Below are positions 1 through 17,380 of a stretch of 64,000 nt of DNA, in pieces. The stretch is taken from the IMG/VR virus record IMGVR_UViG_3300033121_001571. One strand, 5' to 3'. The position numbers and the translations under genes are program-made. The DNA comes from a virus. Lineage: Duplodnaviria > Caudoviricetes. Positions within the stretch are counted from its first letter, which is position 1. Every line of letters begins with the position of its first letter. Below the pieces are notes generated by a model. It saw nothing but the letters and a program-made list of their open reading frames with translations. It had not been told where the DNA came from and made no database searches.

Positions 1-173
1 GCTGATTTTTTCTGCTTGGAAAAATCAACTTTTTGAGCTGCAGATGCTAATTTCTCCATCAAAGAAATCTGAGTCTCAAGAGATTTCTCAAGTTTCTCTG
101 AAGCTTTTGTAACAGCTTCTATTGTTTCATTGAGTTTTTCTGCAAACTCTAACTGAGACTTATCAACAGCCAC
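1..173 (-). CDS. Partial ORF running off the window, probable N-terminus of the tape measure protein
   Basis: GTG at 173 opens MAVDKSQLEFAEKLNETIEAVTKASEKLEKSLETQISLMEKLASAAQK... with no stop to the window edge. It is helical/coiled-coil-like and lies downstream of the tube and chaperone genes. Not in the supplied ORF track. Confidence 0.5.
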   Translation of the reverse strand, partial: MAVDKSQLEFAEKLNETIEAVTKASEKLEKSLETQISLMEKLASAAQKVDFSKQKKS

Positions 174-212: not shown

Positions 213-491
213 TCACAATGGCCAAGGTATACCCAAAATACGTTCAAACTCTCTAGCAGAGGCGTTTTTAAGATTTAACTTGTGCAACACGCTATCAACT
301 GTAGCTCCAGGTCTGTTTAATTCATCCTGAAATCTTTTTGAATTTAACATAGCTCTTGCAACAGCATCAACTTCTTCTGGCGTACCTTTGACTTTGACGT
401 TGACCATCTTGCCAAGCAACCAGGCAGCTACAGACGCAAAAAAAATCTTTCCAATAAGATTCAATCTTAATTCATTTATTTGTTGCGACAC
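213..491 (-). CDS. Hypothetical late protein with a hydrophobic N-terminal segment
   Basis: 92-aa ORF; segment IFFASVAAWLLG; ATATTTA motif just upstream (496-502). Confidence 0.6.
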   Translation of the reverse strand: MSQQINELRLNLIGKIFFASVAAWLLGKMVNVKVKGTPEEVDAVARAMLNSKRFQDELNRPGATVDSVLHKLNLKNASAREFERILGIPWPL

Positions 492-534
492 AACGTAAAT
501 ATGGACATGTCATCTATAATCATAGATAGAGTTC

Positions 535-804
535 TTGAACATTCTTAAACCGGGTTCTCTAATCTTGCTAAAGTGCTATTGTAACACAAAAGAAACAAAA
601 TCACACTATCACAAATTATTAGATCCAATCAATTTACAAAACATATTTGTTCCTATGAACTTTCCTTTGTTTTTTTTGAACATAGAAAGCACCAATAACA
701 GTATGTCTATATTGAAAGGACTAGAGATAATAAGCGTCTACTACAACAATACCTTACAAAAGTTGTTGTTGACAAAAAATTACAACTACGTATTGATCAC
801 GTAA
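535..804 (+). CDS. Hypothetical protein on the opposite strand
   Basis: 89-aa ORF filling an otherwise empty gap; no recognisable motif. Confidence 0.35.
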   Translation: MNILKPGSLILLKCYCNTKETKSHYHKLLDPINLQNIFVPMNFPLFFLNIESTNNSMSILKGLEIISVYYNNTLQKLLLTKNYNYVLIT

Positions 805-1066
805 ATCTTCTAAGTCTTGCAGGCGTCTTGTCTCTGGTCATATTTTGTAATGATCTAGTTGTTGGATCATTGTGATGTAAAGCTCTAGAACGAGCGTCTC
901 CGCCTTCAGTTGATTTTTCTAATTCTTTATTGACTCTCTCTATAAAGAATTTCTTGTATGCAACAGGCAAAGTCATAGCTTCAGTGAACGAAAATCCCAT
1001 ATAGTACATCAATAAAAACGTAGGCTCTAAAACTACAATCTCTTTGTCAGCTTGACTGAGGCCAAA
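797..1066 (-). CDS. Tail assembly chaperone second domain (T-like or gp51-like), probably expressed by +1 frameshift from 1047..1910
   Basis: FFGLSQADKEIVVLEPTFLLMYYMGFSFTEAMTLPVAYKKFFIERV resembles the 'W/F s..E...LP...R' motif of tail chaperones. There is no convincing start before the domain, and it overlaps the 3' end of the upstream gene in the +1 frame. Confidence 0.6.
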   Translation of the reverse strand, partial: FGLSQADKEIVVLEPTFLLMYYMGFSFTEAMTLPVAYKKFFIERVNKELEKSTEGGDARSRALHHNDPTTRSLQNMTRDKTPARLRRFT

Positions 1067-1910
1067 GAAACGATGGACCGATCGGAATCGATACCTCCTC
1101 TTCGGCTTCACAGCTTGGACACACTGAATTTTGTGACATAACAATACCAGGTTCGTTATTTCGAATATAACTTCGAAGTGATAGAGAATCTCTAGCAGGC
1201 ATAACTTGAATAAATCTTCCTATAGCTGCTTTGTCAGTCACAGAATCAATTGCAATTATGTTTTGATGAAGCATTGATGTAACATGTGACTCGCTTGGAA
1301 GACCAAGTTTCTTCTGCTTTTCTTTTGTCTGTGAAGCTTCTTCTTCATCTCTTCCAGTCAAAAACTTAAACTTGACTACTTTTTTCGTAAGTGGAAGAGT
1401 GACTTCAAATAGATTTTTTCCTTCCTCTAACGGATTTATAGTTAATCTCTTGATCTCAAGTTCTTTCAAATCAAATAATCTCTTAGTCTTTGCTTCACAC
1501 TTACTGCACTCAACTTCTGCTTCATAGTCTGAACCGTAACCTGTCACTCTAATTGCTACCATAAGAGCAGCGCGGTCACCAACTAAAAGATCTGCGGGAT
1601 TCACAGTTTTATCAAGTATACATGACTTCAATAACTCAGAAATCGTAGTACCTTTCTTCATAAAAGCTGTAGAGGTCAAGATGTCTTCCTCTTTCGCAGT
1701 CATTACTTTAATCTCAATAGAGTCTTTCATGTAGAAAGGAGAACCAACTGGATACACCAGACCATTTGACGGAAGAGGGACAATTTCAATTGGAACAGAA
1801 TAAGAAAATTCTGCCTTAGCTCTGTCAGCTAAAGACATAGCTGGAATACCTTGCACTTGCTGTGGCGTTGTCTGAGAGAACACTGAGTTCTTTGACTCTC
1901 TATCGTCCAT
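1047..1910 (-). CDS. T4 gp26-like baseplate hub / tail assembly chaperone
   Basis: LPSNG..YP, MTAKEEDIL, DLLVGDR..L...IR..GYG, two CxxC pairs and a C-terminal FLWP; located between the tail tube and the tape measure. Confidence 0.75.
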   Translation of the reverse strand: MDDRESKNSVFSQTTPQQVQGIPAMSLADRAKAEFSYSVPIEIVPLPSNGLVYPVGSPFYMKDSIEIKVMTAKEEDILTSTAFMKKGTTISELLKSCILDKTVNPADLLVGDRAALMVAIRVTGYGSDYEAEVECSKCEAKTKRLFDLKELEIKRLTINPLEEGKNLFEVTLPLTKKVVKFKFLTGRDEEEASQTKEKQKKLGLPSESHVTSMLHQNIIAIDSVTDKAAIGRFIQVMPARDSLSLRSYIRNNEPGIVMSQNSVCPSCEAEEEVSIPIGPSFLWPQSS

Positions 1911-3748: not shown

Positions 3749-4237
3749 TCAGAATTGCAAGATCCAAGCATCAGCTCTAAGCGTCAGCGAAATCTCTGTG
3801 AGTCCTTCATCTTCATACGATAGATCACCAAAGTTTGCTTCAGTGATAAACGCTCCCTTTCCGTCCCAATATTCAACTACGGTACCAACAGGATCTAACA
3901 TCTTAAGTGCAACGTCTCTCTTATAGAAGTCAGCGTAACCAGATCTTCCAGATACAACTTCAAAGTGAAGTCGAATCCATTCCATCACTTGCTGAGCACC
4001 AGAAGGTGCAATTGGATCGTGCAAAGTAACAGAGATGGTGTTGAACTTTGTTTTACCAGCGATATACCTGTGTGAGTTAATGAATGGAATCTCTAACTCA
4101 CCAGTTGTAACAGTTGGCCTAGCTGCTGTTTTAAGCAAAAATGCATCGATACCCTCGATCATAAGCACCCACTGGTGCTTCTTCTTAGGGTGAAATTTGT
4201 TAGGCAACATTGATGCAACGTCGAGCGTCTCAGCCAT
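3749..4237 (-). CDS. Tail tube protein (T4 gp19-like)
   Basis: ARPT..GELEIPFIN..RYIAGK, VMEW, LKMLDPVG..VE.W...GAF, F.DLSY; 162 aa; follows the sheath genes; GAGG SD. Confidence 0.85.
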   Translation of the reverse strand: MAETLDVASMLPNKFHPKKKHQWVLMIEGIDAFLLKTAARPTVTTGELEIPFINSHRYIAGKTKFNTISVTLHDPIAPSGAQQVMEWIRLHFEVVSGRSGYADFYKRDVALKMLDPVGTVVEYWDGKGAFITEANFGDLSYEDEGLTEISLTLRADAWILQF

Positions 4238-4901: not shown

Positions 4902-7900
4902 TTAGATTTGTGCTGCACCGTTCTGGACAACAAAGTCAAGCGATACGTACTCCAACGCTTTAACAGGTTTGACAATGATCTTACCTCTAAGAGTGTTGTT
5001 TTCGATATCAGTCTTGGTTGTAGTCGATGTATCAATCATAATCTTGTACTTGTCTATACCTGCAAGTGCTTGGATTCTATCAAGCTTTGGCTTGACTGCA
5101 CTACTGAATTTTGCAAGTGTTGCTTCACGTGAAGGTTCAAACATTATTGTCTGCGCAATGTCACGAACCTGTCTACGAAGATCAATCATCAATCTTCTTA
5201 CGTTGACCCTATCTAGAGCTGATGCTGCAGCTTGAAGAGTCTTCTGTCCCCAAATCACTACACCACCAGCTGGGTTTCCTGTTGGAGATGAGTTACCTGG
5301 GAATGCAACTAGTGGATTGATGTTAACATCATATAGATCATCCATGTTTGATTTTGACAATTTGACCTTAGCTTCAAGAGTTGAAACTAGAGCACCTCTT
5401 GTGAAACCAGCTGGTGCAAACCATGGGTGACCAAGTTTGTCATTTAACGCAAGCGCTCCCAACACAACTGCCGAAGGTGGCACAACTAAGTTTGTGTTTG
5501 TGTTTGGATCTGTAAGAGTCACGTCTGGAAAGTATGCTGCTGCAAAGTTTGAATCAAGCGCGCGGGAAGAGAAGTTATCAGCTATCTTCTTCACTGAAAC
5601 TTGTGTTGAACTATCAGCAGCAATGATGTTTCCGTTGTCATCACAGTGCTCAACGTCCATCAAATAAAGAGCATCAAATCTCTCAGTTGTTGCAGCGGTC
5701 GCATAATCAGTAACTGCAGGATTTCTTATTCCTGGAATTGCTAGAACTTGGATGTCTACGTTAGTGGTGTTCTTCATTATATCGATAGCTTTGGTGTAAG
5801 AACGGACGTTTGGTCCCAAGTTCTGTCCCCTGTTAGAGTCATCCATGTCTGCTTTGACAGCAGTATCATTGATGTTATACTCATTTCTATCGAAGATATT
5901 GACACCATCAAATCCACCTTGCAAGAAGAAGGTAAACTTTGCGTACCTTCTGTTAGCTTGTGTCAAATCGGTAGTTGCAAGTTTTCTTGTCTTTGTTGTT
6001 TCATTTGTGACAATGTTTCCATCACGAACATAAGAAGCTGACATCCAAAGTGAGGAATCAGCAACACCAGTTGAAGCAGTCACAACCATGATATTCTCTA
6101 ATGAGAATGCATTCAGACAGAATCTATCAGCGTCTAAGATACCATTTGCCGCTGTGTCTGCAACACCGTTGTTATCACCAACAGCGAATGTCACAGAATC
6201 AGTGAGATGTTGTGGGAAGAACATAGAGAATGCACTCAATGACTCATTCTGTAAAGTGCTTGCATTTGGCGTTGTCAATGAGACAATGTGTTCAAACTGA
6301 GCACCCCAGTAAAGAAGAGGATTTGCAGCAAGCTTGTTGCCAGATCCTTGAGTGATATTTAATCTCAAAGGAACTGGTGGTGTCTGTGCTTTCTTCAACA
6401 CAGAAGAAACAGCTGCTTGTGTCGTAGAAGGCGTTGCAAGCGGTGCAGAACCTGACGTAACTAAGTGTGAGACACCTCTAAATCCAAATGGCAGTGCAGT
6501 TGGATCTACTGAAGCATTGTCAACTAGAGAAGAAACTTCTACACGAACAATATTTGACTTGTTCTCATAGTTACCCTCAATGATCAGTCTTTGATTTGTT
6601 TCTGCTCTGTTAAAGTCAAAGAACGCATTTACATCACCAATTACTTTTGCGATGTATCTGTCTGACGAAGGATCAAGAGACAAAGCCCTGTGCTGCTCAA
6701 TGTAGATTGGATTTGTGTCACTGTCATCCCAATCTCTGATCACTAAGTCAAATGTTCCATACCTGTTCAATGGATCGCTAGAAGGAACGAGATTCTCAAT
6801 TGAGAACTTGTATGCTTGTGCAACGCCAGAACCAGCGCTTAATGCGTGAAGTCTGAACAAGTTTATTGCTTGTCCACCAAACTTTTGTGAAGTAACCCAC
6901 GGTGTCTTTGCATAAGAGAATCTATCAGTCCAACTTTCATAGTTTGGAACTGTCGTGTTTCCTGTAGCTCTGCTCAGAGATCCAGTTGTTAAGAACGCAG
7001 ATGACTCAACACCAACTTTTGCTGCTCTAGAACCACCAGATCCAGAAGTAGTGTGCAGTAAACCAGTTCCGGTAACGACCGCAACACTGTTGTGAATATC
7101 CCAGTGTGCATACAAGAAGTGTCCAGCTTGTTGAAGTTTGTAAGGATCTGTGTTCATAACCTTTGCAAAATAATTTGGTGACGTCATGTCAAAGGACGCA
7201 GTGATCACGTTTGGATACAAAAAATCTGTACCTTTGTGACCGTTTAACAACATGACAAAGTCTTGCTTTGAAACGTTATTTTCACTAAGTACAACAGCGC
7301 CCAAAAGTCCGCCAGATGCAACAGAATCAGTTGCAACCATATCAGAACCAGGAACTGCGTTATTTCCTTCTGCGGAAGAAGAAAGTTTCAATATGACACC
7401 TGATGGTGCCATCACAATTCCTCTAACTATTGGTACAGACGCTGTAGTACCCGGAACTACGCCTGCTGCCCCTTGCAGACCAGCAGAGCTAAAGAACGTA
7501 GAACCTGCTGATTCAGACATAAATGCACCAAGAAAATATGTTCTACCAAGAACAGAGTTACTTCCAGAATTTGCATAAGTGTTTCCAAACAAGAAACCAT
7601 CTGAAAATCTTGGCTGGTTTTCACCAACTGTGAAACCGGCATTTGTCACTGAACCGTCGCTGTTTCTTGTTTTACCGTTTCCAACGCCTAAGACTCTTAC
7701 GTAAGTCACAGCGCCAGCGTTTCTAAGCCACTCATTGACAGCGATTGGACCAAATTTTGATCCATCAGTTTCACCAAACTTAGCATAAAAATCTTCAATC
7801 GAACCAAGCGTTAAAGGAACGAACGCTGGACCTTTGTTTGCAGTACCAATAACGCCAGCTGGAGTTCCAACTGGAGCTACAGACACTGGCCCAGATATAT

Positions 7901-7949
7901 CGATTTCGTTGCTCGAAACTCCAGGTGAACCAAACTTAACTTGTGCCAT
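4902..7949 (-). CDS. Contractile tail sheath protein, copy 1
   Basis: N-terminal SPGV...EID and GTANKGPAFVP; C-terminal PWFAPAGFTRG, INPL, WGQKTL and DRVNVRRL. Confidence 0.92.
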   Translation of the reverse strand: MAQVKFGSPGVSSNEIDISGPVSVAPVGTPAGVIGTANKGPAFVPLTLGSIEDFYAKFGETDGSKFGPIAVNEWLRNAGAVTYVRVLGVGNGKTRNSDGSVTNAGFTVGENQPRFSDGFLFGNTYANSGSNSVLGRTYFLGAFMSESAGSTFFSSAGLQGAAGVVPGTTASVPIVRGIVMAPSGVILKLSSSAEGNNAVPGSDMVATDSVASGGLLGAVVLSENNVSKQDFVMLLNGHKGTDFLYPNVITASFDMTSPNYFAKVMNTDPYKLQQAGHFLYAHWDIHNSVAVVTGTGLLHTTSGSGGSRAAKVGVESSAFLTTGSLSRATGNTTVPNYESWTDRFSYAKTPWVTSQKFGGQAINLFRLHALSAGSGVAQAYKFSIENLVPSSDPLNRYGTFDLVIRDWDDSDTNPIYIEQHRALSLDPSSDRYIAKVIGDVNAFFDFNRAETNQRLIIEGNYENKSNIVRVEVSSLVDNASVDPTALPFGFRGVSHLVTSGSAPLATPSTTQAAVSSVLKKAQTPPVPLRLNITQGSGNKLAANPLLYWGAQFEHIVSLTTPNASTLQNESLSAFSMFFPQHLTDSVTFAVGDNNGVADTAANGILDADRFCLNAFSLENIMVVTASTGVADSSLWMSASYVRDGNIVTNETTKTRKLATTDLTQANRRYAKFTFFLQGGFDGVNIFDRNEYNINDTAVKADMDDSNRGQNLGPNVRSYTKAIDIMKNTTNVDIQVLAIPGIRNPAVTDYATAATTERFDALYLMDVEHCDDNGNIIAADSSTQVSVKKIADNFSSRALDSNFAAAYFPDVTLTDPNTNTNLVVPPSAVVLGALALNDKLGHPWFAPAGFTRGALVSTLEAKVKLSKSNMDDLYDVNINPLVAFPGNSSPTGNPAGGVVIWGQKTLQAAASALDRVNVRRLMIDLRRQVRDIAQTIMFEPSREATLAKFSSAVKPKLDRIQALAGIDKYKIMIDTSTTTKTDIENNTLRGKIIVKPVKALEYVSLDFVVQNGAAQI

Positions 7950-7994: not shown

Positions 7995-10900
7995 TCACAA
8001 GAACTCAACTCCTGTTGTAGTAATCACAAAGTCTAACGCAATAAATTCAAACGTTTTCGTTGGCCAGATCACGATCTTGCCGTTCATCTTGTTGAGTTCA
8101 ACGTCCTGAGTTGTGTTGTTTGAATCATTACAGATTACTTGGAACTTCTCAATTCCAGACTGTGCTTGTACAAGACCAAGTCTAAGAGTGCTATCTGAGA
8201 AGAATTTGTCTCTTGTTGCTTTGTTGTTTTGTTCAAAAGTCAACTTCAATGCAATCTCAATAACGAGTCTCTTGACCTCAAGGAGAAGTCTTCTCACGTT
8301 GACTCTGTCTAAAGCTGACTTTGCAATCTGAAGCGTTCTTTGTCCGTAAACAACAAATCCCAACTTCGGAAACACAGCAATTGGATTGATACGTGAAAGT
8401 TGTAGTCTGTCTCTGTCACGAGCATCAAGACGTACTTCTACATTTTTTACAAAGTCTAGAGCAGCACGATTGAAACCAGCTGGTGCAAACCATGGGTATG
8501 CAACTAGATCGTTAAACGCAATTGCTCCAAGTGCAGCGACAGAAGCTGCAACTTTGACTCTTCTCTTATTGACAGCGTCGTCTATCCAAACACTTGGGAA
8601 GTAAACACCTGCGTAGTTGTTATCGATTGCTCTAGAATCGACTGCAGCTGCAGTGTAATCTACGTTCAAACGATTCGTTGAATCATCATAGATTCTAAGA
8701 GCGCCGTCATCGTATCCTGGAATATCCATCATGTAATAAGCCATTCCGTACTCTCTTGACTTTCTCATTGCATAATCAGTTAAGAATGGTTCTCTGATTC
8801 CTGGGATTGCAAGAAGATTTGTGTTCACTACCATAGGATCAGTCATGATGTCAATTGCAGTGACGTACGAAGCAACGTTGCTATTTGCCTGTCCAACACC
8901 ATTTGGATTAACTAACAATCCTGGAGCAACGTAGCTTCCCTCAGCACCACCGCTTGCATCAAAAGACGTAGCAAGATCGTTCATCTTTTGTGCATTCTTG
9001 TCTAAGAAGTTTAGACCATCGTAACCACCGTACATGAAAGTGGTGAATTTTGCGTAAGTTGTAAACCTGTTAAATTCAGCAGCTGTGCCGCTTGATAGCA
9101 ACGTAGCAAGCGTGATTCTTCTGCCAATGCTGCTTGAAATCGTATATGACGTTGTGTCGATTGTACCTTTTCGTAGGTACGCTGCTTCTCTCATGTGGTC
9201 ATTTACTGACGATGTCAAGTGTGACAGAGAAGTGTTTGAGAATGCAACCTTGCTTAGAGTAAACTTGTTGTTACAGAAAGTGTCTGCTCCAGAACCAGTA
9301 ACAAGAGTGTCTAACTTCTTGATACCCAAGAACTTTGTGTATGACTCAAGCAGATTGTTCTTTTCTGAAGTAACGTTGCAATTCAGAGGATCATTGTTCT
9401 TTTCAAACTTCACACCCCAGTAAAACTGTGGCGAAGCAAGTTCAAGAGGTCCTGGCTGACCAACAAAGGTACCAGCTGTGCTGACATCACCCTTTGTCAC
9501 TTTAACTCTGAATGGAATTGGAGGCAAAATTGCGCCTGACAGTGCAGATGCAACACCCGTACCCATAACACCAACAATCTTTGGTGTTGTGCCAGCCGTA
9601 TCATTCAAAGAATCATTTGTCTTTAACAGCTCAACACCCCTGAATCCGAATGGTAACGTGACTTCAGGAACTAGTGCGCGGTCGACGGCATCATCAATTA
9701 TGACCCTGACGTACTTTGATCTGTTGTTGTATTTTCCAGAAACAACGTGTCTTCTCTCTGATGCAGAAGTTGCATCAAAGTTAAATGACACTTTTCTGTC
9801 GCCTATGACTTTACCAATGTATCTTTCAGAATAAGGATCAAGATTACAATCTGGGAAAGATTCAAGTACTTGTTGATTGATATCAGTGTCATTCCAGTCT
9901 CTGATCTGCACGGTGAAAGATCCGTACTTGTTTGAATCATCAACAGAAGCTTTGATGTTCGTTATAGAAATTTTGTATAAGTTGTTTGCATATGCACCAT
10001 CGTCAAGTGACTCAAAGTAGAATAGATCGTATTCGGTAGCACCGAAAGGTTGTGAAATAAACATAGGAGTCTTTGGTGTAGAGTAACGAGTGTCAAAAGA
10101 TCCGTATCTCTGACGCATAATCATAGATGCATCACCAGAGTTTGCACTTGTTAAAGTAGATCCAGATAGAACACCGACAGTTGTTGCAGTTGCAAGTTCA
10201 TCATCAACAGGAAAATCTGCATAAAGTAAGTGTTGTTCTGTGCTGAATTTTTGAGGATCAGTGTTGAGGATCTTTGCAAAGTAATCTTTTGAAGATGGGT
10301 CTAAAGACGCTGAGAAAATTCTCACTCCAGATGCACCGTCTGTGACTCCAAAAGATGCACCGTTTGATGATGATAAGACTAACTTAAACAATCCACTTGA
10401 GATCGTTGCAGCATCATCAGGACCAGCAGCGGTGAATACACCAACAGAAGATTCATTTCCGTCAAGAATCATCATACGAGTTCCAGATGCTAGCAACACC
10501 ATTCCTCTCACAAGGTTAACAGTTGAACCATTGAAAGAACTGTTATCTGTGAACATCGGCATTCCATAAGCTTCATTTGAACGTAAAGAGTGTCTTGCTG
10601 TCAAGAACTGCACAGCGCCAGTGTGGCGGCCGCGAGAATCATCTGCAGCAGATGCACCGTATAAATACACACCAGCATTCTTAACTCTACCAGCGCGAGT
10701 AGTAGTATCAATATCAGAAGTTGTCGTGTTAGCACCAGCTCCCAAGACTCTCAAATATGTAAGTGCAGTTCTGTGTTTTAAGAACTCATTGACAGCATAA
10801 GGACCTTGTTTGTTGACATCAAGATTGCCAAAAACAGAAACAAACTGATCCATAGAACGCACTGTTAAAGGAACGAATGCGGGACCTTTGTTTGCAGTAC

Positions 10901-11003
10901 CAATAACGCCAGCAGGCGTACCAACAGGTACTGCGTCTACTGGCTGAGATTTGTCAATCTCTCTCTCATAAAAATTTGGTGCTATGAAAGTCTGTTCTGC
11001 CAT
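7995..11003 (-). CDS. Contractile tail sheath protein, copy 2
   Basis: GTANKGPAFVP; PWFAPAGFNRA, INPI, YGQRTL and DRVNVRRLL. Confidence 0.92.
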   Translation of the reverse strand: MAEQTFIAPNFYEREIDKSQPVDAVPVGTPAGVIGTANKGPAFVPLTVRSMDQFVSVFGNLDVNKQGPYAVNEFLKHRTALTYLRVLGAGANTTTSDIDTTTRAGRVKNAGVYLYGASAADDSRGRHTGAVQFLTARHSLRSNEAYGMPMFTDNSSFNGSTVNLVRGMVLLASGTRMMILDGNESSVGVFTAAGPDDAATISSGLFKLVLSSSNGASFGVTDGASGVRIFSASLDPSSKDYFAKILNTDPQKFSTEQHLLYADFPVDDELATATTVGVLSGSTLTSANSGDASMIMRQRYGSFDTRYSTPKTPMFISQPFGATEYDLFYFESLDDGAYANNLYKISITNIKASVDDSNKYGSFTVQIRDWNDTDINQQVLESFPDCNLDPYSERYIGKVIGDRKVSFNFDATSASERRHVVSGKYNNRSKYVRVIIDDAVDRALVPEVTLPFGFRGVELLKTNDSLNDTAGTTPKIVGVMGTGVASALSGAILPPIPFRVKVTKGDVSTAGTFVGQPGPLELASPQFYWGVKFEKNNDPLNCNVTSEKNNLLESYTKFLGIKKLDTLVTGSGADTFCNNKFTLSKVAFSNTSLSHLTSSVNDHMREAAYLRKGTIDTTSYTISSSIGRRITLATLLSSGTAAEFNRFTTYAKFTTFMYGGYDGLNFLDKNAQKMNDLATSFDASGGAEGSYVAPGLLVNPNGVGQANSNVASYVTAIDIMTDPMVVNTNLLAIPGIREPFLTDYAMRKSREYGMAYYMMDIPGYDDGALRIYDDSTNRLNVDYTAAAVDSRAIDNNYAGVYFPSVWIDDAVNKRRVKVAASVAALGAIAFNDLVAYPWFAPAGFNRAALDFVKNVEVRLDARDRDRLQLSRINPIAVFPKLGFVVYGQRTLQIAKSALDRVNVRRLLLEVKRLVIEIALKLTFEQNNKATRDKFFSDSTLRLGLVQAQSGIEKFQVICNDSNNTTQDVELNKMNGKIVIWPTKTFEFIALDFVITTTGVEFL

Positions 11004-17048: not shown

Positions 17049-17064
17049 CTGTACATTCATCCTG

Positions 17065-17380
17065 TGGAGTACTGCGGAATTGAACCGCAGTCCAAGATCT
17101 AGAATCACTCAAGTCATTCACAGTCTTAGCTAGAGACTAGCGTTTTTTGCTCCAGTAAAGTCTTGAGCAGTGCACTTGATTTTAAAGAGAATCACTCTTT
17201 TTTTTGTGACATTCTGTTTCTAGGCTGTCACAACCCAAGACAAACTAAGCTGCTAGCTTAAGAGAGTCAATGCGGCCGTTATCGTTGGCAACTAACGTTC
17301 ACTTGGATTTTAATCTGGTTCCTAGTGTACCAGCGACTGCACTCAAGTAACTTTCAACCCTGTCGAAACCTTTGTACCCC
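17065..17380 (-). ncRNA. ssrA: One-piece tmRNA; tag reading frame 17289-17245 encodes (A)ANDNGRIDSLKLAA*
   Basis: 5' GGGGUAC pairs with 3' GUACUCC-A and contains the G3.U alanine identity pair. It has 5' GGUUUCGAC, T-arm CUGCG-GUUCAAUUC-CGCAG, UAGUU before the GCC resume codon and a tag ending LAA. CCA is not encoded. Confidence 0.95.

Follow-up and report, generated by a model that had tools for sequence, protein, structure and literature searches.

The 64,000-nt stretch of IMG/VR virus record IMGVR_UViG_3300033121_001571 (Duplodnaviria; Caudoviricetes), referred to here as the window, carries on its minus strand a gene related to T4 gene 26, open reading frame (ORF) 1, whose 3′ end overlaps a second conserved coding region, ORF2, in the +1 frame (Table 1; positions are those of the window). 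An earlier note on this DNA had proposed that the two are joined by a programmed frameshift into a chaperone pair resembling G/GT of phage lambda. Toward its 3′ end ORF1 reads TCG (1073-1071), TTT (1070-1068), CTT (1067-1065), TGG (1064-1062), and CCT (1061-1059), a sequence that the note had given exactly to the base, and frame 0 then continues with CAG TCA AGC (Q-S-S) to a TGA stop codon (1049-1047). Displaced by one base, the same stretch reads TTC TTT GGC CTC (F-F-G-L) at 1069-1058 and, as had been claimed, runs on as an open frame, which extends to a TGA at 799-797. A single four-base step at the sole in-frame TTTC gives a read-through of 370 residues with no stop codon. The identical ORF1 occurs on 23 contigs and the T run in the window is interrupted (TTTCTTT), and the two-frame junction is therefore not an assembly error.

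The arrangement was compared across 114 loci, drawn from 13 phage records retrieved by tblastn with ORF1 and from 106 loci recovered in two scans of viral contigs; 99 distinct +1 loci were used for all counts of slip sites and start codons. A broad alignment (A2) proved too divergent to be usable for the locus search. Amino acid identity of ORF1 to the window was 33-60% for the metagenome loci and 26-28% for the most distant isolates. In a profile search, 113 of the 114 loci showed an ORF2 homologue that lies across the end of ORF1 in the +1 frame, and nowhere among the 114 was this homologue in frame with ORF1 or a detached gene. In 111 of these 113 loci the profile match begins at its first position, 5-23 nt before the ORF1 stop codon; the other two, L010 and L032, carry an insertion that shifts the match to 22-28 nt past that stop codon. 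Homologous +1 continuations are found in Microcystis phage Mel-JY01, Flavobacterium phage immuto, Listeria phage LIS04, and Streptococcus phage GXN1, as well as in Streptomyces phage LuckySocke and an uncultured 484-kb phage, and the joined product is annotated in none of these six records. The exception is Ralstonia phage RsoM2USA (L033, 4223-4498), in which ORF2 lies in the -1 frame behind GTT TTT TTT TCC, a T9 run. The two-product design is thus kept even where the direction of the shift differs. In the RsoM2USA record, the 1.4 kb past the gp26-like gene is unannotated.

The earlier note had suggested aligning homologous loci, and this was informative: dual-frame coding of F-[FL]-W-P and F-F-G-L, together with the T-rich run, is kept across about 100 diverged loci, and in an alignment of the fused sequences F-F-G is invariant across the junction. 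Frame 0 of the relatives stops 2-7 codons past the slip site, and the residues after W-P are unrelated to one another. All 99 distinct loci have, inside the overlap, an in-frame TTT with C or T as the next base, including about 18 in which the overlap is as short as 23-29 nt. Given this site in 99 of 99 loci and the same arrangement in 113 of 114, the junction in the window is not a product of chance. A control on frames that remain open past stop codons was confounded by the next genes and was not used.

ORF2 has no convincing start codon of its own, in line with what had been noted previously; the earliest ATG in its frame encodes the M of MYYMG and lies 20 codons into the conserved domain. 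More generally, no ATG, GTG, or TTG occurs between the upstream +1-frame stop codon and the conserved F-F-G-L in 38 of the 99 loci. Downstream, the median distance from the beginning of the conserved domain to the first start codon is 18 codons, and a Shine-Dalgarno match almost never precedes that codon. Initiation there would cut off most of helix 1 in the predicted ORF2 domain. It could be argued that ORF2 is nevertheless a separate small protein, produced from an internal start or by re-initiation after termination of ORF1, with no fusion being made. Public gene callers do predict a 67-70-aa ORF2 product from an internal ATG (L035:10641-10853, with equivalents in L036-L040), GenBank records annotate small downstream ORFs (e.g., in Mel-JY01, and gene 91 of LuckySocke), and the window contains a TTG at 1144 and a GTG 14 codons upstream in the ORF2 frame. 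We consider this improbable, as over a third of the loci have no start upstream of the conserved N-terminus, the downstream starts fall inside the domain, the slip site is the exact point at which conservation of the protein sets in, and many loci have their +1 frame closed 1-3 codons upstream. Neither a conserved independent start for ORF2 nor a lack of conserved overlap, which the earlier note had named as contrary outcomes, was seen. A conserved coding region that has no conserved start and that joins in phase to the upstream gene at a slippery run is a signature of recoding. On these sequence comparisons, the gp26-like gene very probably yields a short and a long protein by programmed +1 frameshifting.

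The most common site among the relatives is N TTT TTT TGG CCT, while most of the others read TTT CTT TGG CCT, as in the window, or TTC TTT TGG CCT. Two overlapping slip contexts, UUU-C and CUU-U, had been proposed for the window in the earlier note. Both are indeed present there, but only the first, in the form UUU_Y, is common to all relatives; a CUU_U slip is not usable in L010 (TTT CTC TGG) or in L003 (TTT CTA TTC). The motif YTT_TGG is present in 88 of the 99 loci and absent from L003, L010, L031, L032, and L034, and its absence from these five leaves UUU_Y as the sole slip feature shared by all. In L010 a +1-frame TGA immediately precedes the site, and the sole codon there able to re-pair one base forward is UUU_C. 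The +1 extension at this locus (L010, 3342-3668) has an extra 14 residues and a second F-F-G past the frame-0 stop, which gives the appearance of a duplicated junction. GC-rich loci that prefer TTC upstream still have TTT at the site (L005, for example, has 0 TTT and 10 TTC upstream), a codon choice that is supportive only, since this TTT is also constrained by a +1-frame Phe codon.

The composition of the sites bears on two other routes to the same fusion. Homopolymer runs can support transcriptional slippage (reviewed in PMC5009743), by which RNA polymerase would drop one U on the T run so that some mRNAs would encode the fusion directly, and about 70% of the relatives have an uninterrupted T7 run, with T9 in RsoM2USA. 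However, the window and about 30% of the relatives have interrupted runs (TTTCTTT, TTCTTTT, TTTCTC, CTGTTTC) of at most 3-4 identical bases and show the same two-frame design. Runs of 3-4 identical bases would be too short for polymerase slippage, and we regard this route as highly improbable. A shift of -2 instead of +1, as in phage Mu, would lead to the same frame, such that the two are indistinguishable by frame, and T7 runs would permit -2 re-pairing. In the window, however, a -2 shift from UUU and CUU lands on CGU and UUC, respectively, with no re-pairing, and neither L034 (CTG TTT CAG) nor L010 offers -2 re-pairing either; this is the least probable of the alternatives. The earlier note had predicted a 287-aa product and a fusion of roughly 370 aa, reached by a shift of +1 or -2. 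The sizes agree with ours, while the -2 variant is without re-pairing support in the window.

With a +1 shift, most ribosomes would remain in frame 0 and stop at 1047, giving the 287-aa protein, and a minority would move one base forward on TTT CTT T (1070-1064) and continue in the +1 frame to 797, giving the 370-aa protein. The likeliest event would be the movement of P-site tRNA-Phe from UUU (1070-1068) onto the better-pairing UUC (1069-1067). The anticodon of this tRNA (GAA) pairs better by wobble rules with UUC than with UUU, which would favor the +1 move. Alternatively, tRNA-Leu might move from CUU (1067-1065) onto UUU (1066-1064) with UGG in the A site, in a manner resembling prfB. The resemblance to prfB is limited, as CUU is followed there by a stop codon and preceded by a Shine-Dalgarno sequence 3 nt upstream, whereas here it is followed by UGG and the GAGGAGG sequence is 22 nt away. 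That the shift is ribosomal, as well as the identity of the slipping codon, the ratio of the products, and the binding partners of each part, we infer.

In bacteria, UUU_Ynn sequences have been reported to be particularly liable to +1 shifts, including where no stop codon adjoins them (PMC5009743). UUU_Y is thought to be the +1 site of YopN-TyeA in Yersinia, and the PA-X site of influenza virus is UCC_UUU_CGU (PMC5009743). The phage sites resemble these in having UUU followed by a pyrimidine, where tRNA-Phe can re-pair on UUY, and L019, L029, and L032 read TTT CGT as in PA-X. They differ from them in that no rare A-site codon is evident and in that conservation of the site spans a very wide radiation of phages and is not confined to one gene. 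A +1 shift was also reported to be very likely in the tail chaperone gene of the haloarchaeal myovirus HSTV-2 (PMC5009743), a precedent for +1 shifting in a myovirus gene of this kind, although for a single virus with no family-wide conservation reported.

The protein encoded by ORF1 matches Pfam family PF12322 (T4_baseplate) with 56.5 bits, compared with a cut-off of 24.5, and phrog_150 (baseplate hub) with an E-value of 7e-20. Apart from PF12322, no chaperone family showed sequence similarity in the Pfam and PHROG scans, and sequence searches of the PDB with the fusion and with the ORF1 profile found no relative. ORF1 and ORF2 were modelled separately with AlphaFold2, the ORF1 model being built from 69 sequences (pLDDT 93.2, pTM 0.86). 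In a VIA-align comparison of this model with 48,161 chains, the first three ranks were taken, with middling scores, by 3fgx (Rbstp2171; Z 6.3, rmsd 4.1, 83 residues aligned), 2ob9 (the HK97 gp13 tail assembly chaperone; Z 5.8, rmsd 7.7, 89 aligned), and 3klu (YqbN; Z 5.8, rmsd 8.2, 93 aligned). HK97 gp13, YqbN, and Rbstp2171 are exactly the proteins whose structures have been named as those of phage tail assembly chaperones (PMC9603447). All three align on residues of about 18-134 of the model, and the comparison supports the prediction that this N-terminal domain folds like the tail assembly chaperones of known structure. Because the Z-scores are middling, the argument rests on the three top ranks and not on the score. 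Foldseek gave no match in the PDB with an E-value below 0.6; against BFVD, many predicted viral proteins described as "baseplate hub" or gp51-like matched the ORF1 model. The G/GT-like chaperone of the earlier note stands with respect to fold and gene position, but its family is that of T4 gp26 and gp51 (PF12322), and it is not a sequence relative of lambda gpG.

Two CxxC knuckles, C135/C138 and C264/C267, are separated by 130 residues in ORF1, in alignment columns that are at least 90% conserved for Cys, and the model brings both pairs together as a zinc-ribbon-like unit with weak matches to zinc ribbons (Z ~3). Both pairs are kept in T4 gp26, and T4 gp51 has one CxxC plus CC.

ORF2 alone had no match in Pfam, in PHROGs, or by tblastn against 50,697 phage records. 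Its AlphaFold2 model is a helix-loop-helix, with pLDDT above 90 for residues 11-50, followed by a low-confidence, flexible tail that ends in an L-R-R-F-T motif conserved in closer relatives. Fold searches with the model returned only generic helix-loop-helix matches, and the ORF2 profile matched only designed repeat proteins in the PDB, which we took to be spurious. No natural in-frame fusion of ORF1 and ORF2 was seen among the best 120 of 2354 matches to the fused sequence, and a search of longer proteins with the ORF2 profile gave a single, unrelated-looking match of 219 aa; both results are weak evidence of absence.

PF12322 is covered over its full length by both T4 gp26 (208 aa, 215.6 bits) and T4 gp51 (249 aa, 177.5 bits). 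The C-terminus of gp26 is two residues past F-F, where ORF1 shifts, and gp51 has about 48 further residues beyond the PF12322 region. By hhalign, positions 6-53 of ORF2 align with residues 206-252 of gp51, which is the expected place (P = 0.066). A profile of the fused protein aligns with that of the gp51 family through the junction to the C-terminus, over 205 columns compared with 139 for ORF1 alone, though the score rises only slightly (41.8 vs. 39.9). PF28602.1 is listed as a second Pfam family on gp51 homologues (P0124-P0215) and presumably covers the C-terminal tail of gp51. T4 resembles the window in that ORF1, gp26, and gp51 are all members of PF12322; the ~48-aa tail of gp51 aligns collinearly with ORF2, but homology between the two is only suggestive. 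T4 differs in that genes 26 and 51 are separate and divergently transcribed, do not overlap, and are not adjacent to the tube gene. Plausibly, each of the two forms has a gene of its own in T4; the sequence relationships are suggestive of this.

Around ORF1 and ORF2 (Table 1), the minus strand carries, in this order, two sheath paralogs, a 144-aa ORF, the tube gene, a 172-aa ORF, four small ORFs, ORF1/ORF2, a 92-aa ORF, and the tape measure gene. The full-length tape measure protein of 1332 aa has matches in twelve PHROG families, of which ten are tail families and nine of these tape measure, with a best E-value of 5e-22. The position between tail tube and tape measure genes that the earlier note had assigned to the pair holds, with the tube gene at 3749-4237, the tape measure gene running from 173, and small ORFs intervening. 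Relatives share the order of sheath, tube, gp26-like gene, and tape measure wherever these are annotated. In the gap at 492-796 we found no terminator-like site and only weak promoter-like matches. Elsewhere in the window, ARAGORN predicts a tmRNA gene on the minus strand (17064-17380; tag peptide ANDNGRIDSLKLAA), which is the sole tRNA-like gene in the 64 kb; no tRNA gene was found.

Table 1. Features of the proposed frameshift locus and its neighborhood in the 64,000-nt window
Feature	Position	Strand	Remarks
ORF1, short form, 287 aa, T4 gp26-like	1047-1910	-	PF12322, phrog_150
Candidate slippery heptamer TTT CTT T	1064-1070	-	In-frame TTT_Y in 99/99 distinct loci
ORF2, +1-frame extension, about 89 codons plus stop	797-1069	-	Profile match from first position
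Predicted long form, 370-aa fusion: ORF1 residues 1-281 plus +1-frame extension	797-1910	-	Read-through
Frame-0 tail past slip codon, L-W-P-Q-S-S-stop	1047-1067	-	Short; relatives vary beyond W-P
Non-coding gap, ORF2 to 92-aa ORF	492-796	.	No minus-strand ORF listed
92-aa ORF directly before tape measure gene	213-491	-	No Pfam/PHROG match
Tape measure gene start, 1332 aa, extends beyond window	3-173	-	Full length on contigs with identical ORF1
Tail tube gene, T4 gp19-like	3749-4237	-	phrog_4542 tail tube, E 3e-27; weak PF06841 match
Two tandem tail sheath paralogs, ~1000 aa each, before single tube gene	4902-7949; 7995-11003	-	

The tail chaperone frameshift of lambda (gpG/gpGT) and its conservation among phages have been described previously (Levin 1993; Xu, Hendrix and Duda 2004, 2013, 2014; as summarized in PMC5009743). 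In lambda-type pairs the two products occur in a fixed ratio, are both required to assemble the tail, and do not form part of the virion. The window resembles lambda in the place of the gene between tube and tape measure genes, in the overlapping frames of which the second has no start of its own, in the slippery run at the junction, and in the proposed output of a short product and a rarer, C-terminally extended one. In contrast, the shift here would be +1 on UUU_Y, whereas that of lambda is -1 at an X XXY YYZ heptamer, the protein has about double the length and an added four-Cys zinc-ribbon domain, and small genes are inserted on both sides.

Several observations weigh against a frameshifted chaperone pair. 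The TTT of the site is also constrained by the Phe codons of the +1 frame, and its conservation alone is not proof of slippage. No downstream RNA stimulator was found, with z-scores ranging from -2.6 to +2.1 in 21 diverse loci, no structure common to them, and z = -0.19 in the window. A Shine-Dalgarno-like stimulator was considered and rejected: the GAGGAGG sequence, which is 22 nt away on the upstream side, derives from E-E-V codons and is not conserved. Judging from the spacing in prfB, 22 nt looks too far for a stimulator of that type. A hungry A-site codon is likewise not evident, as CTT is a common Leu codon in the genes of the window (22.8 per 1000), and the frequencies of CTT, TGG, and GGC in these genes indicate no such codon. 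With respect to the fold, VIA-align warns that Z-scores in the middling range of 5.8-6.3 may reflect a common arrangement only. Finally, the candidate chaperone gene is parted from the tape measure gene by the 92-aa ORF and about 300 nt of non-coding sequence, unlike in lambda. Separately, a hairpin can be drawn at 1040-1072 (minus strand) that pairs the slippery run with downstream AAAGAGA (D-K-E codons); it is no more stable than shuffled sequences, and no counterpart was seen among the relatives.

If lambda gpG and gpGT are a guide, the part shared by both proteins would coat the 1332-aa tape measure protein. The 370-aa form would consist of these shared first 281 residues and an 89-residue extension (helix-loop-helix and flexible tail), and the extension on the rare long form would, again by analogy, recruit another tail or hub component and so start assembly. 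T4 gp26 and gp51 have been known as hub assembly chaperones that are essential and absent from the virion, with roles that have long been unclear (PMC3004832). We lean toward the view that the PF12322 proteins serve T4-type phages and many others with contractile tails as their tail assembly chaperones, that an ancestral programmed frameshift, mostly +1 on UUU_Y, gave rise to G-like and GT-like forms, and that T4 split these forms into two paralogs, with gp51 (the "hub assembly catalyst") being the equivalent of GT.

Frameshifted chaperone pairs are textbook knowledge for lambda-like phages, and we found no work linking them to the T4 gp26/gp51 family, nor any report of a frameshift in this PF12322 family in the literature and database records that we searched. 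In current annotation ORF1 is routinely called "baseplate hub subunit," and ORF2 either receives no annotation or appears as a truncated gene call. If the frameshift is real, thousands of phage genomes would be misannotated at this locus, given the 2354 family members matched in the protein search, and frameshift research would gain a large collection of natural +1 UUU_Y sites that are deeply conserved and lack obvious stimulators. For the family itself, T4 gp26 and gp51 would gain a concrete mechanistic model.

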